A DNA stretch of 64,000 nucleotides, taken from positions 230,413 through 294,412 of the forward strand of contig JBBTRF010000001.1 in the NCBI GenBank assembly GCA_038065315.1, in the 5' to 3' direction. Origin of the DNA: Patescibacteria group bacterium. GTDB taxonomy: Bacteria; Patescibacteriota; Minisyncoccia; Phycocordibacterales; JBBTRF01. Positions 40,761-62,394 of the stretch are shown piece after piece. The notes under the pieces were generated by a model. The model was not told the DNA's origin, ran no database searches, and saw only the letters and a list, made by a program, of their open reading frames with translations. How positions within the stretch are numbered: position 1 is the stretch's first letter; every line of letters begins with the position of its first letter. Position numbers and translations under genes: made by a program.

Positions 40761-40838
40761 GGTGGTGCGGATTTTTCATACAAAAGTATGAGAAAAGTAT
40801 GACGAATCCGCACCTACTCTTTTTCTCGTCGCCACCCC
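40761..40838. repeat. Palindromic intergenic repeat element, copy C
   Basis: GGTGGTGCGGATTTTTCATAC...GTATGACGAATCCGCACCTACT plus CTTTTTCTCGTCGCCACCCC. It starts at the nucleotide after the dus stop and is followed (minus strand) by a separate GC hairpin with a T-tract at 40700-40745. Confidence 0.75.
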
Positions 40839-42017: not shown

Positions 42018-42032
42018 GTAAATCTGCCCTAC

Positions 42033-44468: not shown

Positions 44469-44484
44469 GTTGGTTGTCTCCCGG

Positions 44485-44877
44485 TTATTGTATTGCCAAT
44501 TGAACACCTCGCACGAAGAGCGCGAGAATAATGAACGGCAGCAAACACCACATCGCCACAAACAGAGCCACGACCAACGTGGTGAGGACACAGACCGCCA
44601 AGGCAAACATGAGGATCATGGCGCGCAATGTCACACCAATCAACCGCATCAACGTATTGATCACCGTCGCCTGCAGCCATTGCTCGAGCTTGAATTTCTC
44701 TCCCTTCTCCTCGCCGAGGCGCTTCCACGGCTCAAAAAACGACCTCAGCAAGATCCCGACCGAGAAGAAATGATATTCGAACCAATATGCCCGCCCAATA
44801 ATGCGGAACATTTCGGCAAAAGCCCGCGAGTAATGCCACTGCAAATACTGCCACGAGAGAATCAATGCTTTCACCAT
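44485..44877 (-). CDS. hypothetical membrane protein
   Basis: 130 aa with a C-terminal pair of TM helices; 17 nt upstream of the Clp-like gene. Confidence 0.35.
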   Translation of the reverse strand: MVKALILSWQYLQWHYSRAFAEMFRIIGRAYWFEYHFFSVGILLRSFFEPWKRLGEEKGEKFKLEQWLQATVINTLMRLIGVTLRAMILMFALAVCVLTTLVVALFVAMWCLLPFIILALFVRGVQLAIQ

Positions 44878-44892
44878 ACTAGTATACCGCAG

Positions 44893-45768
44893 CTACTGTT
44901 TTTTGTAATACACCTTATTCCCATAGCGGAGATCCAGATATTCCACTCGTGCAGAAGTCAGGTTTTCCGAATCCACCACCCGCCGAAAAGCCTCAATAGA
45001 CCGCTGGATATCCTGATCCAAAGTGAAGAAAATTCGCGTACCACCAGCCGTCACCACTTCGAATTCGTTGTTCTCTTTCGCAATCAAGGCCATCGGCTTG
45101 AATGAGGCTCCAAAAAAGTCTACGCCACCGATCGCAGAGACGAAAGATAAAGCGCTACCAAAAGCATCCGGTGTCGATGAAGCCAAAAAATGCGCTCCCA
45201 GTGGCGATGTGCCGGGAGCGAGACCACCATAGAGCTTCACATACGGTGTGCCGGAAAATGAAGCTGCTTCAGCGTATAGATACCCCTTCTCGTCGGAGTA
45301 CTGACACTGCTCATTGCCAGAGCCGGCTTGGACCACAGCAGGGGCGAGCACACCGCACCAGACATACACCGGAGTACGTTCGCCAATACGCATGGTCAGT
45401 GTCGCTTCCCCACGCCACTGACCATCCAACCCCGCACTCACGACCTCAACACGGAACCATTGTTGTTTGATCGCCGACAAGATCGCACGCTTTGGGTACA
45501 GCAGTACGTTACTCTTCGGAAATACCCAAAGATAATTGCCGTCGGTAAGTTCTGCGATCTTCGCTTGAACATCACTTGTGGCTGTCACCGAATTCCCTTC
45601 CACCTGCACTGATTGGATCTGAAAAATACTCAACCGAGCAATGAGAATGACGCTCGCCAAAATGATGAGAAGCGAAACGCTGGCGACAATGCTCTGGCGA
45701 ATAAGCTGCTCGCGCCGTCGACGCGCATACTGTGGAGACGTGAGGTTAGATGAACGCCCGATCGCCAT
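44893..45768 (-). CDS. ftsQ: Cell division protein FtsQ/DivIB-like (TM + POTRA)
   Basis: Short basic N-terminus, single TM (IVASVSLLIILASVILIARL), POTRA-like IQSVQVEGNSVTATSDVQAKIAEL... and WFRVEVV...MRIGERTPVYVW. Confidence 0.55.
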   Translation of the reverse strand: MAIGRSSNLTSPQYARRRREQLIRQSIVASVSLLIILASVILIARLSIFQIQSVQVEGNSVTATSDVQAKIAELTDGNYLWVFPKSNVLLYPKRAILSAIKQQWFRVEVVSAGLDGQWRGEATLTMRIGERTPVYVWCGVLAPAVVQAGSGNEQCQYSDEKGYLYAEAASFSGTPYVKLYGGLAPGTSPLGAHFLASSTPDAFGSALSFVSAIGGVDFFGASFKPMALIAKENNEFEVVTAGGTRIFFTLDQDIQRSIEAFRRVVDSENLTSARVEYLDLRYGNKVYYKKQ

Positions 45769-47105
45769 TAGTTGTTCCCTTTAGCTGGCGTAGCGGGAAT
45801 TGTTTTTGAGCCGGCGACGGGCGCAACAACCGGCACAATGACCGTGCGACCGCCCATGTATTTCTGAAGCACTTGCGGAATTTTTATCGATCCATCAGCC
45901 TGCTGGTTGTTTTCGAGAATCGGGATAAGAATGCGCGGACTGGCGAGCGCGGTATTGTTGAGCGAGTGCACAAAGCGCATCTTGCCCTCAGCGTCTTTGT
46001 ATCGAATGTTGAGTCGGCGGGTCTGGAAGTCGTGGAAATACGAACATGAATGTGTCTCGCACCACGCTTTTTGCGATGGCACCCACGCTTCGACATCGTA
46101 CTTCTTCACCTGGCCGAGACCGAGGTCTCCAGCGCAGTTGAGTACAACATGGTATGGAATATTGAGCGCCTGCATCATCTCTTCGACATTCGCGAGGAGT
46201 TCTTCGTGGAGGGCGACACTGGTCTCGTGGCTCGCTTCGCAGAGGATCACTTGCTCAAATTTGAAAAATTCATGGACACGCTTCACGCCCTTGGTGTCTT
46301 TGCTGTGTGCACCTGCTTCGCGTCGGAAACACGGAGAAAAAGCGAGCGTCTTTTCCGGTAGCTGCAACTTGTCGAGCACTTCGTCCATGTGATACCCCAT
46401 CGCGGCCACCTCACCGGTACCCGCGAGATATGAAGCGTCCTGAGTCTTGTACAAATCTTCCTCGCCCTGCGGGAGGTAGCCGGTACCCATGAGCAAATTT
46501 TTGTTCACAAGTGAAGGCACCATGGCAGGAGAGAACCCTTTCTTCGTGAACATTTCCAGCACAAATTGCCAAAGGGCAAAATTAAGGAGCACTGCGTCGT
46601 TCTTTAGAACATAGCCGCGGAAGCCCGCCACTTTCGTGCCACGATCGAAGTCGCAGAGGTTGAGCGCCTCCATCAGCTCGATGTGGGACTTTGGCTGAAA
46701 ATCGAATTTCGGAATCTCGCCCCACGCCTTCACCTCTTTGTTTTCTGCATCACTGGTACCGTCTGGCACCGACATGTCAGGGATATTTGGCACCTGCACC
46801 ATCAGCGCCTGCCACTCTTTCATCACCGTCTTGAGAGCCTCTTCCTCAGCCTGCATGCCGTCTTTGAGCGTCTTCATCTGTGCAATGAGGGTGGCGCGTT
46901 CGTTTGGGTCAGCCGAAGTCGCCGCCTTCACAATGCGCTCGCTGTATGCATTTTGCTCGGCACGCTTCTTTTCGAGGCCCGTCATGAGCTCGCGGCGCTT
47001 GTCATCAACATTGATCAATGCAGTGACATCGAACGGTACTGATTTCCGCTTTGCAGCAAGCTGTATAAGCTCGGTATTCTCTCTGATGAATTTAATATCA
47101 AGCAT
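45768..47105 (-). CDS. serS: Seryl-tRNA synthetase
   Basis: N-terminal coiled-coil arm (MLDIKFIREN...) and class II aaRS motifs 1-3 (FRRE, GAGLGQ-like region). Confidence 0.9.
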   Translation of the reverse strand: MLDIKFIRENTELIQLAAKRKSVPFDVTALINVDDKRRELMTGLEKKRAEQNAYSERIVKAATSADPNERATLIAQMKTLKDGMQAEEEALKTVMKEWQALMVQVPNIPDMSVPDGTSDAENKEVKAWGEIPKFDFQPKSHIELMEALNLCDFDRGTKVAGFRGYVLKNDAVLLNFALWQFVLEMFTKKGFSPAMVPSLVNKNLLMGTGYLPQGEEDLYKTQDASYLAGTGEVAAMGYHMDEVLDKLQLPEKTLAFSPCFRREAGAHSKDTKGVKRVHEFFKFEQVILCEASHETSVALHEELLANVEEMMQALNIPYHVVLNCAGDLGLGQVKKYDVEAWVPSQKAWCETHSCSYFHDFQTRRLNIRYKDAEGKMRFVHSLNNTALASPRILIPILENNQQADGSIKIPQVLQKYMGGRTVIVPVVAPVAGSKTIPATPAKGNN

Positions 47106-47167
47106 TGTTCAAGAAAAAATGAAGTTTTTACTTGTTTTTATCATATCAGAAATCGTAGAATTGCGGA

Positions 47168-48133
47168 ATGGAACACAAAAATCCGGAAAAATACCCGATT
47201 CGCCAACTTTCAGTCGACCAACTGCCCCGCCAGCTCGCAGAGATTACCGGCCGACCAAAGCGACTCTATAGTAGAGGGGACGAGAGCCTACTGCATAGGT
47301 ACGTCGAAGGCGCCGCGAACACCGCGGGAGGAAATCGGGGTCGCGGCCACAAGCTACTCTGCGTCATTGGCTCCCGGCAATACACGCCATACGGCCGCGA
47401 AGCCTGCGAAGCGATCATCGCAGGACTTCGCGACTACCCCATCACTATAGTATCCGGCCTGGCGCTCGGTATCGACGGCATCGCTCACGAAGCCGCCCTC
47501 AGAGCTGGATTAAAAACCGTCGCAGTGCTTGGTTCAGGACTGGACGACAACTCCATCTATCCCCCTTCCAACCAGCACATCGCCCGCCGTATTCTGGCCG
47601 AAGGCGGCTGTCTCGTCTCGGAAAATCCGCCCGGTACTCGCCCAGCACCGTATCACTTCCCGGCTCGCAACCGCATCATGTCTGGCCTGTCGCACGCGAC
47701 ACTGGTGATTGAAGCAAGGCGCCCCAGCGGCACCCTCATCACCAGCCAGCTTGCCACCGACCAAAACCGCGACATCCTCGCCGTCCCAGGCTCGATTTTT
47801 TCCGAGCACGCGGCCGGCCCGCACTATCTCATTGGCAAGGGCGCCACACCAGTGACCTGTGCACACGATGTGCTGGTGGCGCTGGGGTTTGCGGTCGAGA
47901 AGATACGCGGCAGAGGCAAAGCGAATGGCACAAAAAATCATACTCTCACAGCAAAACTCGCTGACCTCACCATCGCGGAAAAAATGTTGCTCGGAATCCT
48001 CGACCGACCAAGGACACGCGACGAGATCATTCGCGAGCTTGGCTGGAGCGCTTCGGAGACCAACGTCACGCTGTCGCTGCTCGAAATAAAGGAACTGATC
48101 GTCGCCGGTTTCAACGAAATTCGCAAAAAATGA
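47168..48133 (+). CDS. dprA: DNA processing protein DprA (Smf)
   Basis: Rossmann-like DprA core IGSRQYTPYGREA...IVSGLALGIDGIAHEAAL; C-terminal winged-helix-like region. Confidence 0.85.
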   Translation: MEHKNPEKYPIRQLSVDQLPRQLAEITGRPKRLYSRGDESLLHRYVEGAANTAGGNRGRGHKLLCVIGSRQYTPYGREACEAIIAGLRDYPITIVSGLALGIDGIAHEAALRAGLKTVAVLGSGLDDNSIYPPSNQHIARRILAEGGCLVSENPPGTRPAPYHFPARNRIMSGLSHATLVIEARRPSGTLITSQLATDQNRDILAVPGSIFSEHAAGPHYLIGKGATPVTCAHDVLVALGFAVEKIRGRGKANGTKNHTLTAKLADLTIAEKMLLGILDRPRTRDEIIRELGWSASETNVTLSLLEIKELIVAGFNEIRKK

Positions 48134-48160
48134 TCGGCAATGCTCAAAAAGTTTCAATGG

Positions 48161-48250
48161 GGGGCGGTGGCGGAGCAAAAAAGTGCCTACGGATTTGTCA
48201 TACGAAAGTATGAGGAAAGTATGAAAAATCCGAGGGTACTCGAAAACGCT
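48161..48250. repeat. Palindromic intergenic repeat element, copy D (inverted orientation)
   Basis: GGGGCGGTGGCGG box then AGTGCCTACGGATTTGTCATAC...GTATGAAAAATCCGAGGGTACT; starts 28 nt after the dprA stop. The box orientation matches the other copies relative to the upstream gene. Confidence 0.7.
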
Positions 48251-48257
48251 GGCGGGG

Positions 48258-48539
48258 CTAGTCGCGATATTCCCAACGATTATTCAACTTGTTGATAGTC
48301 TTACCAGAGAATACCTTTGTCATACCGAGCGGAGTAATCTTCTTTTTATACGGACTCTTAGATAGCACCCTGGATACAGTTGCCTTATGTACGTAGGGCA
48401 TTGATTTATGATTTCTGAGTAACTTGAAGAAATGAATCTGATCAATCGTCAGCTCAGCATTATCGCCGCATTGTGAGGTTCTTACTGCTTTGTTGAGAGC
48501 GGCGGCAACTAGGTCTGCTGTTTTGTTGATTGTTGTCAT
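48258..48539 (-). CDS. small hypothetical protein, weak HU/IHF-like resemblance (AT-rich)
   Basis: 93 aa; the N-terminus MTTINKTADLVAAAL resembles the HU N-terminus. Sits between repeat copy D and tRNA-Arg. Confidence 0.3.
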   Translation of the reverse strand: MTTINKTADLVAAALNKAVRTSQCGDNAELTIDQIHFFKLLRNHKSMPYVHKATVSRVLSKSPYKKKITPLGMTKVFSGKTINKLNNRWEYRD

Positions 48540-48555
48540 GTTTTATAGAATTAAG

Positions 48556-48627
48556 TACCCTCGGGAGGATTTGAACCTCCGCGTTCTCGCTAGAATCGAG
48601 ACAGTCTATCCATTAGCTTACGAGGGC
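48556..48627 (-). tRNA. tRNA-Arg (anticodon UCU)
   Basis: Manual fold: acceptor GCCCTCG/CGAGGGT (G1:U71), anticodon stem TCTCG/CGAGA with loop ATTCTAG, T-arm GGAGG-TTCAAAT-CCTCC, discriminator A, no encoded CCA. Confidence 0.8.
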
Positions 48628-48719
48628 AGAAAAAATAAAGCGCTGAGCCATAGCGCCAGTAGGTCCTTTATCTTCTGCGTCTCGTAAACACAGCCGGTAT
48701 CATTGCCTTCAATATAGCA

Positions 48720-50225
48720 TTATTTCACCCTATTCTCCAGCACCTTCCAGATCTCCACCATTGCCAACGTATCGAGGTGGCAGTAGTCTTCGAGCGCCTG
48801 AATTTTTATTTCCCTCTCTTTTTCAGAATATTCACCGCTCACGATACGATTCCACGTATCGGAAGCCGCGCCACCATCCTGTATGTGCATATCCTTGTAT
48901 GACAAGTGCGGCACCAATGCGGGCAACACATACTTGATCGAAGCACTTCCCTTGAATGCAGGGTGATCATACACCGCAGTCTTACCGGAAAATGGGATCA
49001 TGAGGTCGACCACGCGACTATTCACACTTTCCATGAACGCTTTGTATTCCGGCAGGCGTTCACCAAGCTGTGTATTGATTCCTTTTTCGAATTTCTGATT
49101 CCACACAACAACGCTACCCGTCTTCGGAAGATGCTTCTGCAGCGCTTCAGCAAAATATCTATCAGGACACTCTTGCTCCGTGTAGATAAAATCATAGTGC
49201 GCCATATCATCGCCGTGAGCATTCACGACATGCAGCGAAAACTGAAATGGGACCTGCTGATATGGCCTGTGCTGGTTGTATTTCGGTATCGCCGAAGGAT
49301 ACGTTTCGTAATCCAGAAACGCGAACGGGTATTTCATGGTGTCCAAAAAAGCCACAACACCCTCGCTGTCGATATACTCCCGACCAGACTGTGCGGTGTC
49401 CACCTGCCGTCGCTGAGGATCCGACAATTCAAAGTCCTCGGGCACGTCGTAAATGCTGAGAATGTTGTTGTCCACGAGCTCCGCAAGCTTGTTCTCTCGT
49501 ATTCGCGCGATCGCGTGGACAGGATACTCCGGCAGATCAGCATTGGAATATGCCGAGGTGGTGCAGTGCGCGTTCCAACCCTTGAGAATACAGTCGCAAT
49601 GCCCCGCCGGCTCTTTTTCACTCGCGAGCCGCTCGTATGCGCCATCCATCTTGTGTCTCACCTCCCCAAGCTTTTCATTCACCTGCTCTGTCATATCCTC
49701 AACAATGAACAGCTGCTTGAGATCCAGATCTCCGGCCCGCACGTACTCCTTGTTGAGCCGGATGAGACTGAGCGTACCCATCCTAATACCCAGATCATCC
49801 AAGATATTTTTTTGAAAAGCAATGTCGATTAGATACTCTTCAGTTTTTCGACCCTCACCTCCTCCTTCTGAAGATGTCGAGGATTTCACCTCATATAGGT
49901 CGTATGCGCTCGTGGAGTCATTCCATACCAACATGTCGGAAGCAGTGATGAATTTTTCCGTGGCAAACACCGGCTGATAGATGACGGCGGTTTTGGCGGC
50001 CATGAGCTTTTTGGTCAGCTCGGTATCGTCGCGAAACTCGACCAGCACTCCGCCGGGAAACAACCCTCGCGCCAGCTCGTCGATCTGGTTGCCAGTATCA
50101 ATAATGTTCAACTCAAAAGCCGAGAGCGGGTATTTTTTATATATATCCGGTCGGTGGATTTTCAGCCAGGCGTTCTTAGCGCAATCAAGGCAGGTGAGGA
50201 AGTTGGTTTTTGAGAGTAGGAACAT
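48720..50225 (-). CDS. DUF2779-like protein (PD-(D/E)xK nuclease-like, N-terminal Cys motif)
   Basis: N-terminus LSKTNFLTCLDCAKNAWLKIHRPDIY resembles the DUF2779 / Cas4-N-terminal-like signature (SK..F..G.QC.K..WL). Start is 1 nt after the preceding gene's stop. Confidence 0.5.
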   Translation of the reverse strand: MFLLSKTNFLTCLDCAKNAWLKIHRPDIYKKYPLSAFELNIIDTGNQIDELARGLFPGGVLVEFRDDTELTKKLMAAKTAVIYQPVFATEKFITASDMLVWNDSTSAYDLYEVKSSTSSEGGGEGRKTEEYLIDIAFQKNILDDLGIRMGTLSLIRLNKEYVRAGDLDLKQLFIVEDMTEQVNEKLGEVRHKMDGAYERLASEKEPAGHCDCILKGWNAHCTTSAYSNADLPEYPVHAIARIRENKLAELVDNNILSIYDVPEDFELSDPQRRQVDTAQSGREYIDSEGVVAFLDTMKYPFAFLDYETYPSAIPKYNQHRPYQQVPFQFSLHVVNAHGDDMAHYDFIYTEQECPDRYFAEALQKHLPKTGSVVVWNQKFEKGINTQLGERLPEYKAFMESVNSRVVDLMIPFSGKTAVYDHPAFKGSASIKYVLPALVPHLSYKDMHIQDGGAASDTWNRIVSGEYSEKEREIKIQALEDYCHLDTLAMVEIWKVLENRVK

Positions 50226-50226
50226 A

Positions 50227-50619
50227 TTAAAATAGATGCTTATATTCTCGATAATTCTCCCTCACGATTCTCTGCCACTCAGCCGTTTCGTTGTGACTGG
50301 CGATGTCGGTTTTGCCATAGACGAGTAGCACGCTGACACATTGTTTTTCTTCATGCCACGCCACAATACACCGATTACCCGATGTCCTTGCAGATTCCTT
50401 GGTCCGATCGACTCGAAATTCAGTCTTCACGATCTTAATACCCTCGACATCACAGATCGTCTCAGCCCTGCTGGTAGTGATGAGGAGATCAATACGCTCA
50501 AGCCCAGCAATAATAGCTCTCAGAGTCACTTCCCAATGACCTTTGTACTTCTTCTCAAAACCTTTGATAAAGTGCCTTTCCGCAAAAGGTTCAATTCGTA
50601 CAGAATAGTTTCCCTGCAT
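50227..50619 (-). CDS. Putative toxin, RelE/ParE-superfamily-like (partner of the Panacea antitoxin)
   Basis: C-terminal GNRCIVAWHEEKQCVSVLLVYGKTD resembles the RelE/ParE core G.yRiiY...v.vl.i.hR. Starts 8 nt after the HTH-Panacea gene stop. Confidence 0.35.
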   Translation of the reverse strand: MQGNYSVRIEPFAERHFIKGFEKKYKGHWEVTLRAIIAGLERIDLLITTSRAETICDVEGIKIVKTEFRVDRTKESARTSGNRCIVAWHEEKQCVSVLLVYGKTDIASHNETAEWQRIVRENYREYKHLF

Positions 50620-50626
50620 ACATGTA

Positions 50627-51328
50627 CTAGAAAACCATTTCCGGGTCCTCCTGGGTGATCAGCTCATAGGGAATAATCTCGTCCGGCCGGCAGATAGCAT
50701 ATGGAAGTTGGTTGTGAGTGAAATTCACAATTTCGCCCGTTTTTTTATCTTTCCATTTCTTACCGATCTCTTTCATGAGCTTCACCTCATCGATAGAGAG
50801 GTCGTTGATCTTTTCATTGGTATTGCTCTCCGATTCGCTGATCAAAAACATTTCTTTGCCGTTGTCGGTCTTTCTTTCCACGACGATCTTCCCTGCCTCT
50901 TCGAGCTCATCGATAGCACGGAAAAAAGTGTCTGGTACCGGACCGTATTCAATCCTTCGATACTGCATGCCGCTCATACTTTGCGAATGATCGTAGTACC
51001 AAGCGAAATCAGCGAGATAGAGCAGCTTGGCGAGCTTTGTCTTAGGAATTTTATTGTCGGCCTTGCTGGTAAGATTCATTCTCAAGTAGGTCAAGATCAT
51101 GTGCTTGTACTTGGCAATGTTCGCGATGTTGCCCGACAGAAGCTCGTCGACAGTGATCCCGAGCATCGAGGCTAGCTTTTGTGCTTCTTCTGCGCTCAAT
51201 GTTTGCTTGCCAGACTCAATAGCCGTATAGGTAGGCCGCGACACGCCAATAGCCTTCGCCATCTGCTCTTGCGAAAGATTATTCTTGAGGCGAAACTCCT
51301 TCACCTTTTGCATATACTTGTTGCTCAT
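50627..51328 (-). CDS. HTH(XRE)-Panacea (DUF4065/SocA-like) antitoxin-type protein
   Basis: N-terminal XRE HTH (LSQEQMAKAIGVSRPTYTAIESGKQ); C-terminal KLAKLLYLADFAWYYDHSQSMSGMQYRRIEYGPVPD matches the Panacea/DUF4065 hallmark. Confidence 0.6.
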   Translation of the reverse strand: MSNKYMQKVKEFRLKNNLSQEQMAKAIGVSRPTYTAIESGKQTLSAEEAQKLASMLGITVDELLSGNIANIAKYKHMILTYLRMNLTSKADNKIPKTKLAKLLYLADFAWYYDHSQSMSGMQYRRIEYGPVPDTFFRAIDELEEAGKIVVERKTDNGKEMFLISESESNTNEKINDLSIDEVKLMKEIGKKWKDKKTGEIVNFTHNQLPYAICRPDEIIPYELITQEDPEMVF

Positions 51329-51432
51329 GCATCAAGTATATGCAATGGATGTAAAGAAGTCAAGCAGGTTTGGTGGGTTATTTTACAAGTCTGATACGAA
51401 GAATGCAGTAACGTGATAAAACCGCTCTATAA

Positions 51433-53439
51433 TTATTCTTTTATGACACAAACAACCACACCTTGCACCCCAACCTCTTCATTACTCGTAAACTTCAATG
51501 GTTTGTGTTTTGAATTACTCGATCGAGGTTTTAAGACCACAACACCGCCCTCACGACGATATTCTTTTATAGTTGCATCATCTCCAATAAGTGCCACCAC
51601 ATTGTTCCCCTCTTCTGGATGATAATTTTTTCGACACAGAACTAAATCTCCATCATTAATTCCGACTTGATTCATTGAGTCACCAGAAGTTCTCAAAACG
51701 AAATACTTTGAACCTTTAGACATTAGCTCACTTTTAACAGGAATCATTTCTTGTACGGTAGAATCAGCAAACATAAGCTCTCCGCATCCAACAGAATCAA
51801 ACAAAGGAACGTTTATAAAGCCACTAACATATGGAGATTCTATTGATGTATTATTATCTTTTAGTACTCCTTCACCTGCACTCAAGCTAACATGCTCTTT
51901 AAAGTAATCTCTTAAATTATCGTCAGTAATATAAACGTACGTACCGAGGATTCCTCTTGTTAGCAACGTTTTATAAATATTAATAACATATCTTTTTAAC
52001 TCCTCTGGATCATCTACTCCTCTATGTCCATTTGAATCTAGGTACTTAGTTTTATCGACTACGATCTTTTTACTGATCGGATCATAAGACATTTCAGGGC
52101 CAATTATAACTCCAGCGTAGTTTAGATCGTATCCTTGAATTGTATGGATGCAACCCACTTCATTGATGGCATTAGGAGAATTCACCCAGTCGTGAATTTT
52201 ACTATTCCAAAATAACTTAATATCTCCTATAACAATATCTGGCACTTTTACATCATTTCTTGATACCCACTTCCATGCGTACCCTGCCACTAAGCGAGAC
52301 AGGGTGTGAATTTTTTCTTGTTTTTTGATATCAATTACCATTTGCCCCAGATCACTGTAAACTTTAAAATCATATTCCGAAAAATCAGCTCTCGTGCTCA
52401 CCTTACTTTCCATTAAGTGATCGATGAAATCAAGGTATTCTCGTCCTCCTCTTACACGCATCTGTGTCTTAAGTTCAAAACTTATTGGATTGGATTCTAA
52501 AACCTTCCGCATCGAAATATCAGAAGGCCTCACAGATTGTCTTTCGTCATAAAAGAGTACGACGTGGCTCGCTGATTTTAGTATCCAATCGAGTTCTGTC
52601 CCCTCATTCCCCAAGCCAAAACTTTTATTGGTTGTATCAAATGTCCCGTAGTTTGGAATATTCCTTCTTTGATGTAGACGATGTGTTTCATCGACGATCA
52701 AAATGTCGTATTTCTGATTCGCGACCTCGTTTGGACCAATTACCATGTTTGGACTTAGGCCTGGAATACTTCTAAATACTTTCTTTAGCGTCTTTCTTAA
52801 AGAAACCATAGCAATTACCAGCGCAATGTCTTTTCTACCTTCCTGAACCAACTGCTTAACTAAGTAAGTAGCTAAAATAGTCTTGCCAGTACCTGGCCCG
52901 CCATGAATAATATAGGACTGTCTCTTATCCCCTCTAAAATATTCTAGTAGCTTTGAAGCAATCAAGTATTGATCGTCTGTGAGAGTTTTATATGGAGAAT
53001 ACTTAAAAAGATCGCTATTGCGAATTTGCAGCAGGTCATTCCTTGCAATCTTTAATTCTTGTAGTTTTTTCCACAATAACTCAAACTTCCCTCGATATCG
53101 TTCACGGTCAAAATAATCATGATTTTGCAAACCTCCGTTTCCGTTCTGAAGAATATACTTACCGTCGGCCACCAAATACTCAATCAATGAAGATTCCGTG
53201 TCGAGAGTCGCTGATTTATTAAATTCGTCGTCAGAAATAACGTGAATGGTCTTTAATTGCTTCCGGGCCCCATTCTCTAAATGCTGCTTCGTTCTAGCAT
53301 AAGCTCTAATTGTTTCTCCAACATAGAGTTCTTTTCCGTTTTCTATTAGATAAACAACTGGCCAATCACTACCGTACTTATAGTTACGTATTTTCTCTAC
53401 GCCAGATGAACTGAATGGAAATTTTACTATTTCTGACAT
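51433..53439 (-). CDS. Three-domain fusion: N-terminal GIY-YIG nuclease + P-loop ATPase (DUF2075-like) + C-terminal LexA/UmuD-like S24 peptidase domain
   Basis: GIY-YIG: VVYLIENGKELYVGETIRAYARTKQH with downstream conserved E (DTESSLIEY) and N (QNGNGG). ATPase: Walker A HGGPGTGKT, Walker B ILIVDETHRL, VLFYDERQ. S24: GDSMNQVGINDGDLVLC...VVALIGDDATIKEYRREGGVVVLKPRSSN (Ser nucleophile in GDSM, Lys in TIKEY; compare LexA GDSM...TVKRL). Confidence 0.7.
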   Translation of the reverse strand: MSEIVKFPFSSSGVEKIRNYKYGSDWPVVYLIENGKELYVGETIRAYARTKQHLENGARKQLKTIHVISDDEFNKSATLDTESSLIEYLVADGKYILQNGNGGLQNHDYFDRERYRGKFELLWKKLQELKIARNDLLQIRNSDLFKYSPYKTLTDDQYLIASKLLEYFRGDKRQSYIIHGGPGTGKTILATYLVKQLVQEGRKDIALVIAMVSLRKTLKKVFRSIPGLSPNMVIGPNEVANQKYDILIVDETHRLHQRRNIPNYGTFDTTNKSFGLGNEGTELDWILKSASHVVLFYDERQSVRPSDISMRKVLESNPISFELKTQMRVRGGREYLDFIDHLMESKVSTRADFSEYDFKVYSDLGQMVIDIKKQEKIHTLSRLVAGYAWKWVSRNDVKVPDIVIGDIKLFWNSKIHDWVNSPNAINEVGCIHTIQGYDLNYAGVIIGPEMSYDPISKKIVVDKTKYLDSNGHRGVDDPEELKRYVINIYKTLLTRGILGTYVYITDDNLRDYFKEHVSLSAGEGVLKDNNTSIESPYVSGFINVPLFDSVGCGELMFADSTVQEMIPVKSELMSKGSKYFVLRTSGDSMNQVGINDGDLVLCRKNYHPEEGNNVVALIGDDATIKEYRREGGVVVLKPRSSNSKHKPLKFTSNEEVGVQGVVVCVIKE

Positions 53440-53442
53440 ATT

Positions 53443-53790
53443 CTAAAGTTTATTATACTTAGTATGTTTTCCTTTAGCTTTCTCAACCGGATATTTTTCT
53501 TCATTAACTCTAATTTTCTTTTCAAGTGCATTTAGTACATCGATATTTAAATCGTGACTCATGAGTAGAACCCAGTACAAAACGTCTGCCAATTCTTCTC
53601 CTATAGCGACTTTGTTTTCTTTTACATATTTTTCCATCTCTTCCTTATTTTTCCACTGAAAATGTTCCATTACTTCACCAGCCTCCAAAACAAGAGAAAG
53701 GGCGACATCTTTAGGATTGTGGAATTGCTTCCAATCTCTTGCGTCACGAAAAGCAATTATTCTCTTTGTTAGATCGATAATGTTTTTCAT
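53443..53790 (-). CDS. MazG-like nucleotide pyrophosphohydrolase (all-alpha NTP-PPase)
   Basis: LVLEAGEVMEHFQW...IGEELADVLYWVLLMSHDLNIDV: EExxE/D metal-binding helices of the MazG/HisE fold. Start refined to MKNIIDL (ATG at 53790); 3-nt gap to the downstream gene. Confidence 0.55.
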   Translation of the reverse strand: MKNIIDLTKRIIAFRDARDWKQFHNPKDVALSLVLEAGEVMEHFQWKNKEEMEKYVKENKVAIGEELADVLYWVLLMSHDLNIDVLNALEKKIRVNEEKYPVEKAKGKHTKYNKL

Positions 53791-53794
53791 ATAT

Positions 53795-54847
53795 TTATTT
53801 CTCATTATTCCCCTCCCCCACCCTCTTCTCAACCCTTTTCTGCACGCCAACCATAGCATCCAAGTACGCTTTTTCGACATCGCTCAGTGTCTTTTGTTGA
53901 TATTTCCGGTACTCGACAGTGGCTTTATCCACCGCCTGCTCATGACTCACCGCTCCTGCGCCGGACAACAACTGTTCGCCAGTGGAAGCGAGTATCCCAT
54001 CGAGGTGCTTCGCCCAGTCTACCATTTTCATCGGAATCTCCCGCTCAGCTTGACGCTCGGCGAAGTCGAGATATCCGGAAACAATCTGCCCGAGTGCGCG
54101 CAGCTCTTTCTCATTCAAATAATTCTTAGCGATCGCCACATCCTTGAGTTGCGGTTTCGAGCCAGCAAAGGTCGTCAGGCCCATAAAATCCTTTTCGGCA
54201 TCAGCTCGGCTATAAATAACTTCCGCTGCCGTCTGCCCATGCACGGCGCAGTGGACTTTATTTTGGATCTTTTTGAAAAATTCTATAGAGGTCTCGGCTC
54301 GGGCATCATAGTCGATGCTCGTAGCGTAGATATCCAAAATTTGGCGATAAAATACTTTCTCGCTGCTGCGAATGTCGCGGATGCGAGCCAGGAGCTCTTT
54401 CCAATATCCACCGCCACCGAGATCCTTCAGACGTTCGTCGTCCATTGCAAAACCTTTGACGATATACTCCCTAAGCCGTGCTGTGGCCCACTGGCGAAAA
54501 TGTGTGCCCTGTACGGAATTTACGCGGTACCCAACCGATATAACGACATCCAAATTGTAGTGCCTCACTGATACTTCTTGCGTTTTTCCCTTTATAGCGC
54601 CGTGTTCTGTGGTTCGTCGGAATTCCCGACATACCACCCTCTCATCCAATTCACCCTCTCTAAAGATATTAAGTATGTGCTCTGCGATAGTTGAACGGCC
54701 TTTATTGAATAGTTCGGCAAGCTGATCCTGATTAAGCCACACCGTCTCGCCCTGCATGCGCACCTCAAGACGAGGCTTGCCCTCGGTGCCTTCGTAAATA
54801 ATTATTCCATTGTTTGGTGGATTGTCTTGCATATCAGCGCCTCCCAT
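53795..54847 (-). CDS. RhuM-family protein (Virulence_RhuM domain)
   Basis: HYNLDVVISVGYRVNSVQGTHFRQWATARLREYIVKGF and IQNKVHCAVHGQTAAEVIYSRADAEKDFMGLTTF are characteristic RhuM-family blocks; 4-nt gap to the MazG-like gene. Confidence 0.55.
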   Translation of the reverse strand: MGGADMQDNPPNNGIIIYEGTEGKPRLEVRMQGETVWLNQDQLAELFNKGRSTIAEHILNIFREGELDERVVCREFRRTTEHGAIKGKTQEVSVRHYNLDVVISVGYRVNSVQGTHFRQWATARLREYIVKGFAMDDERLKDLGGGGYWKELLARIRDIRSSEKVFYRQILDIYATSIDYDARAETSIEFFKKIQNKVHCAVHGQTAAEVIYSRADAEKDFMGLTTFAGSKPQLKDVAIAKNYLNEKELRALGQIVSGYLDFAERQAEREIPMKMVDWAKHLDGILASTGEQLLSGAGAVSHEQAVDKATVEYRKYQQKTLSDVEKAYLDAMVGVQKRVEKRVGEGNNEK

Positions 54848-54930
54848 TACCCTACGTCGACTTCAATACGAGTATCGTATCACTTTTCACCTTCGCCAGC
54901 ACGACATCCTGCGCTCTCCACCACCGCCGC

Positions 54931-55401
54931 CTAATTCAACATCCAAATACTGAAATTTAGGTACCCCGCAAAGCTCACCCAGAGGATGTAGGGGGCGAGA
55001 AGCCAAGCAGCTGGCCGCGAGACCTTCGCGAAGGCGACGATTGAAGCGACGATAGCGACCCACAAAAAGACGAGCTCAACAAAAGCGGCGCCTGGGCTCT
55101 GCATGCCGAAAAAGATGATCGACCACAGGGTATTGAGCACGAGCTGACCGAGAAAGAGACCGAGAGCGATCTTCACTTCCCTACGCTCCAGCCCTTTCCG
55201 CCACACTATATACGCGGCGATACCCATGAGTACAAAGAGTGTCGTCCAGACCGGCCCAAACACCCACGCCGACGGATTGATCATCGGCTTCACGATGCCC
55301 GCATACCAACCGTCGATGTTCGGCGTAGTGAATAGAGCGCCGATGAGGCCAGCGAGCTGTGGAACGATGAGCGTGATGATGAGTTTGATTGAATTATTCA
55401 T
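54931..55401 (-). CDS. TspO/MBR family tryptophan-rich sensory protein
   Basis: PSAWVFGPVWTTLFVLMGIAAY..., LFLGQLVLNTLWSIIFFG, YILWVSFAGYLN; five TM helices. Start refined to MNNSIKL (ATG at 55401). Confidence 0.65.
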   Translation of the reverse strand: MNNSIKLIITLIVPQLAGLIGALFTTPNIDGWYAGIVKPMINPSAWVFGPVWTTLFVLMGIAAYIVWRKGLERREVKIALGLFLGQLVLNTLWSIIFFGMQSPGAAFVELVFLWVAIVASIVAFAKVSRPAAWLLAPYILWVSFAGYLNFSIWMLN

Positions 55402-55481
55402 AACACTTTCTATTATACTACGCTCCACGAACACACCTCGTACTTGCCACGCTCCACTCCTTAATGTAATACTTAGCTTCA

Positions 55482-57830
55482 ATGCCACAAAAAAGTTCAA
55501 CAAAAAAATCTTCCGGAAAAATAAAGGCGATGGCGGAAGATGCGCCTGCGACACACGGCTTTGCTCGAAAAACCGGCAAAAAGTTGCTCATCGTCGAGTC
55601 TCCGGCGAAAGCGAAGACTATTTCTAAATATCTCGACGGCGAGTACACCGTGCGTGCGTCGGTTGGACACGTGCGTGACCTCCCAAAAAACAACAAGAAG
55701 GCCATCGACATCCCTGGCGGCTTTATCCCCCACTACGAAATTTCCAAAGGCAAAGAAAAAGTCGTCGCCGAATTGGCCGAGCTCGCCAAGACCGCTGAAG
55801 AAGTCCTCCTCGCCACCGACCCCGATCGAGAAGGCGAGGCTATTGCTTGGCACATTAAGGAGGCGTTGAAATTAAAAAACCCAAAACGTATCGTCTTCCA
55901 CGAAATCACCAAGGATGCGGTGAAAGAAGCGATGGAACATCCGCGCGACATCGACGAAAATCTGCGTCGTGCCCAAGAAGCCCGCCGCGTACTCGACCGA
56001 CTCGTGGGATATGACCTTTCCGGCCTCATCTGGAAGAAGGTGAGATACGGCCTTTCTGCTGGTCGCGTACAATCCCCCGCCTTGCGCATCATCATGGAGC
56101 GCGAGCGCGAGATTCGCGCCTTCATCCCCGAAGCGTTTTGGGTGATCAGTGCTGAAGTACAGCCAGCGACCACCTCAAAAGGCACCACCGCTCCGGCCTT
56201 CACCGTGACCTGCGTCGAAGAGCCGCGCGATCAGAAAGAAATGGAGCGTATCGTGGACGTCGGCACCAAAGCGGGCGAAGAAAACGGCTGGTACATCTCC
56301 GGCATTTCCGAAACCGACACCAAGCGTTCGCCAAAAGCGCCATTCATCACTTCCACTCTCCAACAAGCCGCGAGCTCACGACTCGGCTACGCTCCTTCCC
56401 GCACCATGGGTATCGCCCAGAAGCTGTACGAAGCAGGCCACATCAGCTACATGCGTACTGACAGCACTAACCTCAGCCAGCAAGCTTTGACGCAGATTTA
56501 CTCGACCATCGAGAGCACTTGGGGCAAGGAGTATCTTAATCCGCGTGTCTTCACGACCAAAAGCAAGAACGCTCAAGAGGCGCACGAAGCGATCCGTCCG
56601 ACCAACATCGGCCAACGCACTGCTGGCTCCGCACCCGAGCAGGAGGCACTCTATGAATTGATCTGGCAGCGCACTGTCGCCTCACAAATGTCGGACGCAC
56701 GCATTATGCGCACCAAGGTCACCGCCAATATTACGGCGGAAGTGCTTGCGAAGCTCGGGGCAAAGGAGATTCCCGACTTCACCATCAATGGCTCACGTGT
56801 TCTTTTCCCAGGTTGGATTGCTGCCGACCCAGAAGCTCGCGGCGAGGATGTTGAAGTACCGAAAGTGTCAAAAGACGAAGCGCTGTCGCTCATCGCCATG
56901 AAGACCGACGCCAAAACCACCGAACCACCGGGCCGATACTCCGAAGCCGGCCTCGTGAAAGAGCTCGAAAAGCGTGGCATCGGCCGACCATCGACCTACG
57001 CGTCCATCATCAAGACTATTGAGGAACGCGAGTATGTTGTGAAGGAGCAAAAAGCCCTCAAGCCCACCGACACAGGTGACGTGGTGAGCTCGTTCCTGGA
57101 AAACAATTTTGCCGAATACATCAGCGACACCTTCACCGCCGACATGGAAGACAAGCTCGACGATATCGCGCTTGGAAAGGCGGAGTATGAAAAAACGCTA
57201 AAGAATTTCTATACGCCGTTTCAAAAAGATATCAAGGCCAAAGAAAAGACCGCGAAGGCCACCGACCTCGGTGCCGCGCCCGATGAATTCAAGTGCCCTG
57301 TCTGCGGCGGTGACATGATCATTAAACTCGGACGTACCGGCAAGTTTTTGAGTTGCGCGAAGTTCCCGGACTGTACTGGAGCGCGCACATTTGAAGGCAA
57401 GGAGCTGGCAGGACCGAAAGAAACCGGCGAAGCTTGCCCAGAATGCGGCAAGGGCAAACTCATCGAGCGCGAAGGCCGGTTTGGCAAATTCATTTGCTGC
57501 AACCTGTATCCGAAGTGCAAGTTCATCAAGAAAGACGCAGAGCTAGAGCGCCAAAACTCCACCGGCGTCGCCTGCCCAATGTGCGGCACTGGAATGATGA
57601 CCGAACGCCGCGGTCGCTTTGGACTTTTCTACAGTTGCTCCAACTATCCGAAGTGCAAGAACGCGATCAAGGCCAAGCCGACCGGCAATATCTGCTCACA
57701 TGGTCGCGACAAAGGCGATGGCAAAGGTTTAACCCCCTGCGGCGCCCTCATGATGGCCGGTACCAAGACCATCCCAGAACGCTGCTCCGACAAAACCTGT
57801 CCGAATCACAATCCGCACAAGTTGGTGTAG
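55482..57830 (+). CDS. topA: DNA topoisomerase I with C-terminal zinc-ribbon repeats
   Basis: TOPRIM (LLIVESPAKAKTI), catalytic Tyr region (GHISYMRTDST) and three or more C4 zinc ribbons (CPVCGG..C..C; CPECG; CPMCG). Confidence 0.9.
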   Translation: MPQKSSTKKSSGKIKAMAEDAPATHGFARKTGKKLLIVESPAKAKTISKYLDGEYTVRASVGHVRDLPKNNKKAIDIPGGFIPHYEISKGKEKVVAELAELAKTAEEVLLATDPDREGEAIAWHIKEALKLKNPKRIVFHEITKDAVKEAMEHPRDIDENLRRAQEARRVLDRLVGYDLSGLIWKKVRYGLSAGRVQSPALRIIMEREREIRAFIPEAFWVISAEVQPATTSKGTTAPAFTVTCVEEPRDQKEMERIVDVGTKAGEENGWYISGISETDTKRSPKAPFITSTLQQAASSRLGYAPSRTMGIAQKLYEAGHISYMRTDSTNLSQQALTQIYSTIESTWGKEYLNPRVFTTKSKNAQEAHEAIRPTNIGQRTAGSAPEQEALYELIWQRTVASQMSDARIMRTKVTANITAEVLAKLGAKEIPDFTINGSRVLFPGWIAADPEARGEDVEVPKVSKDEALSLIAMKTDAKTTEPPGRYSEAGLVKELEKRGIGRPSTYASIIKTIEEREYVVKEQKALKPTDTGDVVSSFLENNFAEYISDTFTADMEDKLDDIALGKAEYEKTLKNFYTPFQKDIKAKEKTAKATDLGAAPDEFKCPVCGGDMIIKLGRTGKFLSCAKFPDCTGARTFEGKELAGPKETGEACPECGKGKLIEREGRFGKFICCNLYPKCKFIKKDAELERQNSTGVACPMCGTGMMTERRGRFGLFYSCSNYPKCKNAIKAKPTGNICSHGRDKGDGKGLTPCGALMMAGTKTIPERCSDKTCPNHNPHKLV

Positions 57831-57890
57831 AGACGCACCACTAGCCGCAAAAGTTATCAACACCTCGGATTTCACCACATTTGACGAAAT

Positions 57891-58640
57891 GTGGCAATTT
57901 ATGCTATTATACTTGGCAGTCAACCGCAACCCTTAGCACGCAGAACATCCTCTATGACCGCTCTTTTACCACCAGCCCGCGGAGACGCGGACCTTGAGCT
58001 CGTCGTCCCAACTCGGCTGCAAACGCCCGGGCCGACGACCGCACCGAAGTTCAAGTGGGAGAACGTCCCCATCTTCTTGAGTGCCTATACGCCCGAGGAA
58101 GCCTACCAAGCCCACGAGGCTGTCAGACAAGTCTTCAATGCCACCGTTGCCCAATGCGCGGTCGACGGCCTCAAGGTTATCGGCAGCCACGAAGCCTGGA
58201 GAAACACCTTCGGCATGACCTCCAGCCTCCCCACCCTCTACGACCTCATGGTCGAGACTGGGTGGCGGAAGCAAGGTTCCGAAAGCTACCGCGCCGAAGT
58301 GCGCAGGAACTTGGCGATGATGCTGCGCGAAACTGCGATGGTCCAGGCGGACTTGTCCAGAGTCCGCTTCGGCATCCGCAACAGCTCGCATTTGATCGTT
58401 GATTCCGGCCCAAACTACGAAAAGGCCGACGCAATGATCCGGATCACGGAAAACGTCTTCGCTGGCGTCGCCCGTTTCTTCCATAGCTCGTCCACGAACA
58501 CGTTTCTCGTGAGCGACCCGCACGGCTTCATCTTCCTCCACGCCCTCAAGGCAAATGTGAAGGCACTCGGCTTCTGGGAAGTCCTGGCAGAAGAAGCAGA
58601 CCTCGCAGGAGACGAGGAAAGTTCCCTCGTAAGGCTGTGA
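57891..58640 (+). CDS. hypothetical protein
   Basis: 249-aa ORF with core-like composition; no motif recognised. Confidence 0.4.
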   Translation: MAIYAIILGSQPQPLARRTSSMTALLPPARGDADLELVVPTRLQTPGPTTAPKFKWENVPIFLSAYTPEEAYQAHEAVRQVFNATVAQCAVDGLKVIGSHEAWRNTFGMTSSLPTLYDLMVETGWRKQGSESYRAEVRRNLAMMLRETAMVQADLSRVRFGIRNSSHLIVDSGPNYEKADAMIRITENVFAGVARFFHSSSTNTFLVSDPHGFIFLHALKANVKALGFWEVLAEEADLAGDEESSLVRL

Positions 58641-58695
58641 ACAACCACACAACGACCTCCAGCACGACAGCGGACCGCAAGGCCCGCTGTTTTTC

Positions 58696-59712
58696 TTAGA
58701 CCACAAAATTATTCACTGAGTACAAATTGTCGTCATTTTCATCCGCCTTCTTCTCATCAACACTGCGGTCGTCGACAGGTGCTTCTGTTCCGACTTCTGG
58801 CTCTGCTATCACCGCAGAAATTTCTGAGACGACAGGCACCTGGATCGGTGCAACGGAAACCACCCCAGCCGCCGTCTTCTTGTGGATCAGCTCCATGAGT
58901 GTACGCAGATCGTCCGGGCCGAAATAATCAATAGTGATCTTGCCGCCTTTGTCGCGCTGTTCGATATGCACACGGGTGCCGAGGGTTTCGGTGAGCTTCT
59001 CCTCCATTTCGATAATGTCCGGCGCGATCATGCGCTCCTTCTTGCGAATCTTGTCAAAGGCAACACGTCGGGCGATCGCCTCAGCCTCACGCACGGTGAG
59101 CTTTTTCAAAATGATCTCCTTGAACAATACCAATTGCTCCTCCGGACGATCATTGAGCATCATCAGCGGACGCGCGTGACCTTCAGAAATGCGACCCATG
59201 GAAAGCGCTTCGAGCAATTCTGGTGGCATCGAAAGCAGGCGGAGTGTGTTGCTGACATATTCTCGGCTCTTGCCCATCTTCTCGGCGATCTGGCCGTGTT
59301 TGAACTTGAACTCTTCGACAAGGCGCTGGAAAGCGCGGGCACGGTCCACAGCATTGAGGTCCTCGCGCTGGAGGTTTTCAATGATGGCTAGCTCAAGCTT
59401 CACGCGGTCGCTCTCTTCAGAAGCGCGGATGAGGGTCGGCACCTGGCTGAGGCCGGCGATTTTCGAAGCGCGGAGACGGCGCTCGCCGGAAATGAGCTCG
59501 TATTCGGTGGAGAGACCGCCGTCAGCTTTCACTACTTCCTTGCGCGTCACCACAAGCGGCTGAAGGATGCCGTACATGCGGATGGATTCAGCGAGGTCTT
59601 TGAGGCGCAGTTCGTCGAATTCCTTGCGCGGCTGGAAAGGATTCGGGCGTACCTTGTCGATATCGATCCAAAAAATGGAGTCGCTGAAGAATTGTGATGC
59701 GGGAGGGGTCAT
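58696..59712 (-). CDS. parB: Chromosome partitioning protein ParB (Spo0J-like) with an acidic C-terminal tail
   Basis: ParB box GERRLRASKIAG, HTH, C-terminal dimerisation region. Start refined to MTPPASQ (ATG at 59712). No parA is seen in the window. Confidence 0.8.
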   Translation of the reverse strand: MTPPASQFFSDSIFWIDIDKVRPNPFQPRKEFDELRLKDLAESIRMYGILQPLVVTRKEVVKADGGLSTEYELISGERRLRASKIAGLSQVPTLIRASEESDRVKLELAIIENLQREDLNAVDRARAFQRLVEEFKFKHGQIAEKMGKSREYVSNTLRLLSMPPELLEALSMGRISEGHARPLMMLNDRPEEQLVLFKEIILKKLTVREAEAIARRVAFDKIRKKERMIAPDIIEMEEKLTETLGTRVHIEQRDKGGKITIDYFGPDDLRTLMELIHKKTAAGVVSVAPIQVPVVSEISAVIAEPEVGTEAPVDDRSVDEKKADENDDNLYSVNNFVV

Positions 59713-59865: not shown

Positions 59866-59949
59866 GCCGGAGTGATGGAATGGCAGTCATGCACGACTCA
59901 AAATCGTGTGTCGCAAGACGTGTGGGTTCAAGTCCCACCTCCGGCACCA
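59866..59949 (+). tRNA. tRNA-Leu (anticodon CAA), long variable arm, CCA encoded
   Basis: Acceptor GCCGGAG/CTCCGGC, anticodon stem CACGA/TCGTG with loop CTCAAAA, extra arm, T-arm TGGG-TTCAAGT-CCCA, ACCA 3' end. Confidence 0.85.
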
Positions 59950-61499: not shown

Positions 61500-61558
61500 C
61501 CAATAGAAAAGCCGCAAGGAGTAACCCCTGCGGCCATTGACTCACGACTAGACAACAA

Positions 61559-62365: not shown

Positions 62366-62394
62366 GTTCTCTCTTTCGTTTTGCGATCCGGCGT

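Follow-up and report, generated by a model that had tools for sequence, protein, structure and literature searches.

A probable composite hotspot island between dprA and topA in a Patescibacteria genome

When accessory genes separate two core genes that are neighbours in related genomes, did they arrive as a single element or build up over time, and what did they bring? We put this question to a block of eight open reading frames (ORFs) and one tRNA gene, all on the minus strand, that lies between dprA and topA of a Patescibacteria group bacterium, within a 64,000-nucleotide stretch of contig JBBTRF010000001.1 (the window; Table 1). An earlier note on this DNA had described the segment as a low-GC defence island flanking a tRNA-Arg gene. 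Pfam confirmed both bracketing genes and most of the note's list of contents: a DUF2779 gene, a gene with helix-turn-helix (HTH) and SocA/Panacea domains that is the antitoxin candidate of a toxin-antitoxin (TA) pair, a GIY-YIG/DUF2075/S24 gene, and MazG-like, RhuM and TspO genes. Our reading differs on how the block arose: it is likely a composite hotspot island, built in stages between the terminator hairpin of dprA and the promoter of topA, and this fits better than a single AT-rich acquisition flanking a tRNA.

Taking 80 topA loci, one genome per species, and mapping the window's proteins onto each, we found the gene order orf291-serS-dprA-topA kept throughout these TopA relatives, all of which are Paceibacteria/Parcubacteria-type metagenome-assembled genomes (MAGs). 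The end of the dprA match and the start of the topA match lie 7-1929 bp apart (median 383) in 71 of 71 loci holding both genes, and no island gene stands between them in any of these 71. Both sister species (genomes JBAXTI01 and CAZRTH01, here L007 and L008) are empty at the site. The closest species, L007 (amino-acid (aa) identity 95% for TopA, 94% for SerS and 79% for DprA), aligns by blastn up to window position 48247 (L007 9922) and again from 55442 (L007 9961), with 38 bp of L007 spacer standing where the window has 7,194 bp. Alignment shows the same order of hairpin, spacer and promoter in L008, and the hairpin, which gives a terminator-like match at 48244-48229, is present in both empty sites. 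A block present in one lineage, with the same site empty in close relatives, is what marks a genomic island, and by parsimony this 7.2-kb block is an insertion in the window's lineage; the earlier proposal that an accessory block had been inserted between dprA and topA is thus borne out by synteny.

To read the same comparison the other way, as an ancestral region lost in relatives or as an assembly or binning chimera with no insertion at all, is barely credible. Such a reading can draw on the fact that MAG assemblies may be chimeric and on the L008 contig, which ends 140 bp upstream of topA. But the whole island is present in the NCBI MAG contig L001, the left junction also in L002, L003 and L005, and the right junction in three other assemblies (L174-L176), while Patescibacteria MAG GCA_964355935.1 and several Hainich groundwater assemblies encode a DprA identical to that of the window; misassembly is excluded because both junctions recur in contigs from several independent samples and assemblers. 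Loss, for its part, would need many independent and precise deletions, because 71 genomes across the class share the dprA-topA adjacency and both sister species retain an intact hairpin, spacer and promoter. Separately, L001 and the window (37210-47168) differ by a 42-nt indel somewhere upstream of dprA.

The spacer that holds the island has gained other genes in relatives. It contains the gene of a Phd/YefM-like antitoxin next to a small ORF in one of them (L017), a RelB plus YafQ/ParE toxin pair in another (L019) and a PemK/MazF toxin gene in a third (L085), and further larger gaps are occupied by ORFs without a family match. Since the gap is filled by differing small genes, the spacer is a site of repeated, independent gain, and we treat it as a recurrent accessory-gene hotspot.

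Base composition delimits much less than synteny does. Direct counts give 44.7% GC for 48140-55410 and 52.7% for the remainder of the window (51.8% for all 64 kb), and the sliding profile together with counts confines a GC of 37.2% to 51400-53900, with 47.3% on its left (48140-51400), 51.6% on its right (53900-55410) and a fall from ~52% to ~32% within 300 bp at the RhuM/MazG junction. The ~35-40% GC that had been assigned to the entire segment therefore holds for 51.4-53.9 kb and fails for the segment as a whole, and the ~58% assigned to the core was too generous, 1-kb windows across the stretch having a median of 53% (sd 5%). Tetranucleotide distances deviate, inside the segment, only in 2-kb windows starting at 50501-52501 (z 1.95-4.3; an anomaly spanning 50.5-54.5 kb), the peak of 4.3 being the largest in the entire window; z is below 0 for windows over 47-50 kb and 53.5-56 kb, and neither 48.2-50.5 kb nor 54-55.4 kb shows a shift. 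GC at third codon positions (GC3; Table 1) sorts the genes into a low group (the helicase-S24 and MazG-like genes), a middle group (orf93 and tox130, the 130-aa toxin candidate) and a host-like group (DUF2779, the HTH-SocA antitoxin, RhuM and TspO), with serS, dprA and topA at 0.63-0.65. A compositional shift is thus present but limited to about 2.5 kb, the rest of the segment resembling the background; the insertion of the host-like part is shown by synteny, not by GC, and a call based on GC would recover just one third of what was inserted.

The host lineage is itself the outlier, with 52-53% GC in the window, L007 and L008 against a median of 42% (range 30-53%) among the 80 related topA loci, only 2 of which exceed 50%. 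In this lineage GC-based island calling chiefly flags DNA of the clade's usual AT-rich gene pool, and the picture is one of a host whose GC has drifted upward and of a gene pool that remained AT-rich.

Table 1. Features of the dprA-topA locus, in window coordinates
Feature	Position	Strand	GC3	Evidence and remarks
dprA	47168-48133	+		Pfam; left flanking gene
Conserved dprA 3' flank with long terminator-like hairpin	48183-48247	+		arms 48183-48196 and 48226-48239; last base homologous to empty sites 48247
Insert	48248-55441			7,194 bp; breakpoints 48247/48248 and 55441/55442 from blastn
orf93, 93-aa ORF	48258-48539	-	0.47	no family match
tRNA-Arg(UCU), reads AGA	48555-48627	-		ARAGORN; Rfam tRNA 50.5 bits
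DUF2779 protein, 501 aa	48720-50225	-	0.60	PF11074, E 2e-38
tox130, 130-aa toxin candidate, RelE/HigB/YoeB-type predicted fold	50227-50619	-	0.47	AF2 and Foldseek
Antitoxin candidate, N-terminal Xre-type HTH and SocA/Panacea domain	50627-51328	-	0.63	HTH_3, E 7.6e-18; SocA_Panacea PF13274, E 1.1e-13
Probable autoregulated promoter/operator of the TA operon	51308-51363	-		inverted repeat and sigma-70-like site
GIY-YIG/Schlafen-group-3 DUF2075 superfamily 1 (SF1) helicase/S24 protein, 668 aa	51433-53439	-	0.32	Pfam; 37.5% GC
MazG-like all-alpha nucleoside triphosphate (NTP) pyrophosphohydrolase, 120 aa	53443-53805	-	0.35	PF12643, E 2.2e-16
RhuM-family protein	53795-54847	-	0.54	PF13310, E 2.6e-106; PADLOC candidate PDC-S05, E 1.2e-160
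TspO/MBR tryptophan-rich membrane protein, 156 aa from ATG at 55401	54931-55401	-	0.64	PF03073, E 3e-50; rightmost insert gene
Conserved topA upstream region	55442-55481	+		promoter-like TTGCCA-18-AATACT 55444-55473; empty-site homology resumes at 55442
topA	55482-57830	+		Pfam; right flanking gene

A largely host-like block invites the alternative that DUF2779, the TA pair, RhuM, TspO and the tRNA are natives moved here by intragenomic rearrangement, and that only the 2.5-kb cassette of MazG-like and helicase genes is foreign. Beyond the GC3 of 0.54-0.64 and the unremarkable tetranucleotides, this would suit a DUF2779 family that is near-ubiquitous in the clade at 66-80% identity (about the divergence of core proteins), TspO genes that stand close to DUF2779 elsewhere (adjacent in L152, within 5 kb in L094 and L108/L110), and a tRNA-Arg(UCU) that is expected to be essential and single-copy. 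However, in the sister species the 10 kb to either side of topA contain none of these genes, no DUF2779 homologue above 80% identity was found whereas serS and topA of the sister stand at 94-95% (dprA at only 79%), the surroundings of DUF2779 change with almost every genome and are often defence-island-like, which argues for mobility, and no rearrangement scars were found. We judge such a relocation unlikely.

How the tRNA relates to the insertion bears on the possibility of a single element. The tRNA-Arg(TCT) placed inside the segment by the earlier note was identified by both programs used (Table 1) and is the only RNA element that Rfam recognises in the region. No tRNA occurs between dprA and topA in the 60 relatives' loci scanned, and the 3' end of this one faces orf93 and dprA; because the bulk of the island lies on its 5' side, the geometry is wrong for tRNA-targeted integration, and the tRNA-Arg is ruled out as the integration target. 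It is cargo within the insert, so the description of an island flanking it does not hold. The direct repeats of the tRNA 3' end that an att site would leave are also missing: the last 19-25 nt have no second copy in the 64 kb at up to 3 mismatches. No direct or inverted repeat joins the two boundaries within 47.9-55.8 kb, where only short two-copy families at chance level occur. The absence of an integrase, already remarked on from the letters, was upheld, profile libraries finding no integrase, recombinase, transposase or relaxase domain in any of the 8 insert ORFs and the intergenic gaps (83-104 bp) being too short for an integrase gene.

One resemblance needs separate mention. The 14 nt at 48226-48239 (plus strand; AAATCC-GAGGGTAC) match, in inverted orientation, the tRNA 3' end at 48555-48572 (minus strand; AAATCC-TCCC-GAGGGTAC), the two copies bracketing orf93. 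The look-alike, AAATCCGAGGGTAC, belongs to the dprA terminator hairpin as its 3' arm, and it is mostly ancestral because the empty sites carry nearly the same arm (AAATCCGCAGGTAC or AAATCCGCGGGTAC); it may be a chance or pseudo-att resemblance and we give it little weight. A remnant prophage, integrative and conjugative element or integrative and mobilizable element, integrated whole at the tRNA-Arg with its integrase later lost, would make sense of that look-alike at the left junction, of a tRNA gene near one end, of nine genes on one strand and of cargo typical of integrative islands. It is nonetheless improbable: no relative offers a tRNA at the site as target, the island extends from the 5' side of the tRNA and not downstream of its 3' end, the 3' end has no direct repeat, the look-alike is inverted and largely inherited from the empty site, the insert ORFs include no integrase or phage structural protein, and the block is strongly heterogeneous in composition, with modules that are found separately elsewhere.

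Codon usage gives the tRNA a possible role. AGA makes up 53% of arginine codons in the AT-rich cassette vs 3% in six core genes, so a tRNA-Arg(UCU) fits the demand of foreign cargo; it may equally be the sole copy in the genome, since core genes use AGA occasionally. Another tRNA-Arg(UCU), 1.3 kb from a truncated DUF2779 in L124, is on the opposite strand and of different sequence, and is uninformative about context.

Evidence for assembly from parts comes from the modules themselves, which recur apart from one another. The HTH-Panacea, tox130 and DUF2779 genes occur in the same order in two unrelated contexts (L124 and L160; HTH-Panacea 87-90% and tox130 78-83% identical to the window's) that lack the MazG-helicase cassette; this conservation indicates that the three move as a block, which has 36-37% GC elsewhere vs 45-50% in the window. 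In L124 (2365-3723) the DUF2779 homologue matches residues 4-357 and continues into unrelated sequence, overlapping an opposite-strand acetyltransferase-like ORF, and is probably a truncated or recombined copy. Published predictions (PMC13621843, PMC3985635) see in DUF2779 a Cas4-like PD-(D/E)XK nuclease joined to an RNase-H-like 3'-5' exonuclease. Its homologues number in the hundreds in Patescibacteria, at 66-80% identity and in many differing contexts: a close one sits in an SNF2/RhuM/methylase/ResIII cluster resembling a restriction-modification (R-M) system, another lies beside an LlaMI-type R-M system, and the best non-self match (80%) is in an unrelated low-GC defence context. A near-identical orthologue by which to locate the gene in the sister species was sought and, with 80% as the best match, none was found.

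Although tox130 matches no sequence family, its AF2 model (39 homologues; pLDDT 89.2, pTM 0.84) has a beta-alpha-alpha-beta4-alpha topology, and the top ~30 Foldseek matches in the PDB are almost all RelE-superfamily toxins (best 1wmi_A, E 5.6e-4, TMt 0.78), from which we predict an mRNA interferase. The protein has 555 homologues, and those with a source name are all from Patescibacteria-type lineages. With a Panacea-domain protein (PF13274) encoded beside this small toxin-candidate gene, the pair is a predicted type II TA operon of the PanAT kind. Its autoregulatory operator is probably, to judge from its placement, an inverted repeat of 17 nt (51308-51324 / 51329-51345, 94% complementary) that overlaps a promoter-like TTGACT-17-TATACT at 51363-51335.

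The AT-rich cassette consists of the MazG-like gene and the gene for the 668-aa protein, whose chain carries GIY-YIG (about residues 25-110; PF01541, E 7.6e-4), helicase (174-506; DUF2075, PF09848, E 7e-64) and S24 (545-663) domains. The GIY-YIG catalytic residues are invariant in 30 homologues. Aligned with LexA of E. coli, the protein has Cys552-Gly553 at the Ala84-Gly85 scissile bond, Ser588 at Ser119 and Lys625 at Lys156, and the consensus of homologues retains GCG, GDSM and IKEY in the S24 domain. Versions lacking S24 also exist, 69-83% identical over the rest, which makes the peptidase an optional add-on regulatory module. The MazG-like protein is homologous to dCTP pyrophosphatase 1 (DCTPP1/RS21-C6; PDB 6sqw/2a3q, E 2.3e-18). 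In a population variant (L002, 12799-13197) it is 92% identical and called as 132 aa vs 120 aa in L001, with neighbours at 98-100%.

The two genes recur as a pair. Three unrelated Patescibacteria contexts have them side by side with 1-3 nt between, among them one beside RhuM-Fic and one beside AIPR and a C5-methylase, and the MazG-like gene adjoins the helicase homologue in every close context examined. On IMG/VR contigs the pair is adjacent in distant loci (37-43% identity, either gene order), a profile search there with the helicase giving only 5 distant loci, and megaplasmids of Bacillus thuringiensis and B. bombysepticus encode a 'nucleotide pyrophosphohydrolase', which shares 51% identity with the MazG of the window, ahead of a 'DUF2075 protein', the homologue pair of B. 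thuringiensis pBMB431 being WP_033679414/WP_016090268; more distant DUF2075 genes stand without a MazG partner. Wherever found, the cassette has 35-40% GC. A prophage origin was considered and rejected, the PHROG matches being to generic repressor, helicase and pyrophosphatase families and IMG/VR offering no close relative. Our literature search returned no paper joining DUF2075, MazG and defense, and no publication on the pair. The MazG/GIY-YIG-DUF2075(-S24) pair is a cross-phylum two-gene module and the more novel part of the island.

What such a module might do can be sketched from its residues and domains. The S24 domain would keep the nuclease-helicase inactive until LexA-type self-cleavage at Cys552-Gly553, triggered by RecA on single-stranded DNA or an equivalent signal, freed it, while its MazG partner would act on dCTP, or on a modified form of it, by hydrolysis and would deplete or sanitise it. 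Tentatively, the cassette could be an undescribed anti-phage system akin in design to Nhi, with S24 as its switch for infection or damage. Another Paceibacteria locus (L108 4480-13632, and the same in L110) lines up an Upf1-like helicase-restriction endonuclease (1172 aa), DUF2779 and a MazG-like gene, which shares 66% identity with that of the window, with an LlaMI-type restriction endonuclease, a 566-aa fusion of a LexA DNA-binding domain, an S24 peptidase and a C5 cytosine methylase, and TspO. It is unusual for a self-cleaving LexA to be joined to a methylase, and a DCTPP1-like MazG beside a 5-methylcytosine system hints at sanitising of 5-methyl-dCTP.

The remaining genes complete the inventory. 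The RhuM stop overlaps the MazG-like start by 11 nt, and an earlier study suggested a toxin role for RhuM in R-M neighbourhoods (PMC3710099). TspO has no evident defence role; it is absent within 10 kb of topA in relatives, and the exact protein stands beside topA in three other assemblies. TspO genes 28-31% identical to the window's adjoin DUF2779 in L152 (643-2565) and lie within ~5 kb of it in L094 and L108/L110; the window keeps this order, TspO ... DUF2779, both genes being on the same strand and five others separating them. As for orf93, tblastn found it only in the same population and in no other locus fetched. It had been called 'HU-like', a label that found no support: four libraries gave no match to Bac_DNA_binding (PF00216) or an equivalent, Pfam even at E up to 10 and NCBIfam, PHROGs and PADLOC at all, so HU/IHF was rejected as a candidate. 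PADLOC matches in the insert are to candidate PDC-S05 (RhuM), to generic HTH control proteins and, in part, to Nhi/AbiO. The neighbourhoods of homologues of island genes include AIPR and R-M genes, and it is from these neighbourhoods and from domain content that a defence character is suggested.

Elsewhere in the window we noted other possible accessory DNA. A ~615-bp insertion relative to both L007 and L008 (59951-60565) begins a few bases from the 3' end of tRNA-Leu(CAA) (59866-59949) and carries a PemK/MazF toxin gene (60064-60462, minus strand) in a ~47% GC patch; it is a better candidate than the dprA-topA island for tRNA-associated insertion. Right after topA, ~840 bp (57858-58696) are filled by a 249-aa ORF without a Pfam match (57891-58640, plus strand), for which blastn of L007 and L008 reported no match, and 61438-63395 (a 268-aa ORF without a Pfam match and orotidine monophosphate decarboxylase) has no aligned counterpart in L008. 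Further low-GC patches lie at 1-4.5, 25.5-28.5, 35-37.5 and 59.5-61 kb. An AT-rich patch at 993-4254 (minus strand; 39-44% GC, tetranucleotide z up to 2.9) encodes a MutH-like endonuclease (993-2396), a RadC/JAB protein (2389-3054) and a RiboL-PSP HEPN protein (3592-4254) and looks like a second defence-type cluster; an alpha/beta hydrolase gene occupies 27625-28521 (minus strand; 37.5% GC, GC3 0.34), and two small ORFs without a Pfam match and ~40% GC (35742-36893, minus strand) surround tRNA-Gln (36169-36242).

Returning to the composite hotspot island, we picture Paceibacteria as repeatedly gaining small accessory modules in the dprA-topA spacer, which in this species would have grown to 7.2 kb. 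Its modules are found apart from one another in other genomes, which makes the island a mosaic that was probably not gained in one event. At least two stages may be envisaged: an older layer of tRNA-Arg(UCU), DUF2779 with the Panacea-antitoxin/RelE-fold toxin pair, RhuM and TspO, now near the high GC of the host, having either ameliorated or come from a GC-rich relative; and a younger one, the MazG plus GIY-YIG/DUF2075/S24 cassette, dropped between RhuM and the TA operon and still at 35-40% GC. With no mobility genes of the island's own, recombination of incoming DNA would be the most likely route, whether this DNA was taken up and exchanged homologously via the conserved flanks or was inserted by a recombinase acting in trans. 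Functionally, the result may be a cluster of independent conflict modules, comprising an addiction or abortive TA pair, nucleases, RhuM as a candidate toxin and a nuclease-helicase resembling Nhi.

Several observations weigh against this account. No mobility signature of any kind was detected, be it an integrase, boundary repeats or a copy of the tRNA end, and since some two thirds of the insert are close to the host in composition, these genes could be long-term residents moved by internal rearrangement. Two layers leave unexplained why tox130 and its antitoxin, though in one operon, differ in GC3 (0.47 and 0.63). No close relative of the 668-aa protein was found on IMG/VR viral contigs, and PADLOC recognises no complete defence system in the insert; as to the earlier label of a defence island, the TA and nuclease content is suggestive, while defence genes do not include TspO, the tRNA or orf93.

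The locus is of interest as a clean, boundary-resolved case of accessory-gene accretion at a core-gene hotspot in an ultra-small, streamlined Patescibacteria genome, and it bears on the way in which conflict genes are acquired and stacked by these bacteria, which are thought to depend on taking up DNA. Wider potential lies in the MazG/GIY-YIG-DUF2075(-S24) pair, whose architecture suggests a nuclease-helicase under SOS-type self-cleavage control.

Among known systems, the nearest to the cassette are Nhi and Nhi-like proteins, validated anti-phage proteins with a nuclease plus DUF2075 architecture (Bari et al. 2022; Millman et al. 2022). Like them, the 668-aa protein joins an N-terminal nuclease and a DUF2075 SF1 helicase on one polypeptide, and the PADLOC Nhi and AbiO models match the N-terminal half of its helicase (E ~1e-15). 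It differs in a nuclease of GIY-YIG rather than PD-(D/E)XK type, in a C-terminal LexA-type S24 autopeptidase and in an obligate-looking MazG/DCTPP1-like partner, and it is not a family member by sequence: no full-length match to the Nhi model was obtained, which covers only residues 142-352 (E 1.3e-15), the AbiO match being partial too. With LexA, UmuD and phage CI the protein shares a C-terminal domain that aligns over its full length, with the Ser-Lys dyad and a Cys-Gly scissile bond in register with LexA; UmuD itself cleaves at Cys-Gly. The cleavable domain is here, however, on a nuclease-helicase and not on a DNA-binding repressor or a polymerase subunit. Panacea-domain antitoxins of PanAT systems were reportedly described by Kurata et al. 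in 2022. The window's pair resembles these in an antitoxin with SocA/Panacea and HTH domains, a small toxin gene directly next to it and a palindromic operator overlapping the promoter, and departs from them in a toxin family without a Pfam model, whose source-named members are of Patescibacteria type and whose fold is predicted to be of RelE type.

Transfer RNA genes of the argU type, tRNA-Arg(UCU), are associated with prophages and islands, and mobile elements carry tRNAs that match their own codon usage. A tRNA-Arg(UCU) inside acquired DNA whose AT-rich genes use AGA heavily conforms to this, except that it is not at an att site and may simply be the only copy of the host. The integration-hotspot concept is said to come from Oliveira, Touchon and Rocha, and many integration hotspots are without integrases. 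The dprA-topA island is like hotspot and defence islands in its presence or absence between persistent core genes, in cargo that differs from species to species and is rich in TA pairs, nucleases and defence candidates, and in a partial compositional anomaly. It is unlike them in being very small (7.2 kb in a genome of ~1 Mb), in carrying a tRNA as cargo, in being host-like over two thirds of its length and in holding no recognised complete defence system. Genomic islands and the transfer of defence genes have been documented in groundwater Patescibacteria, and the structure of this island is of that well-known kind (PMC12455944).

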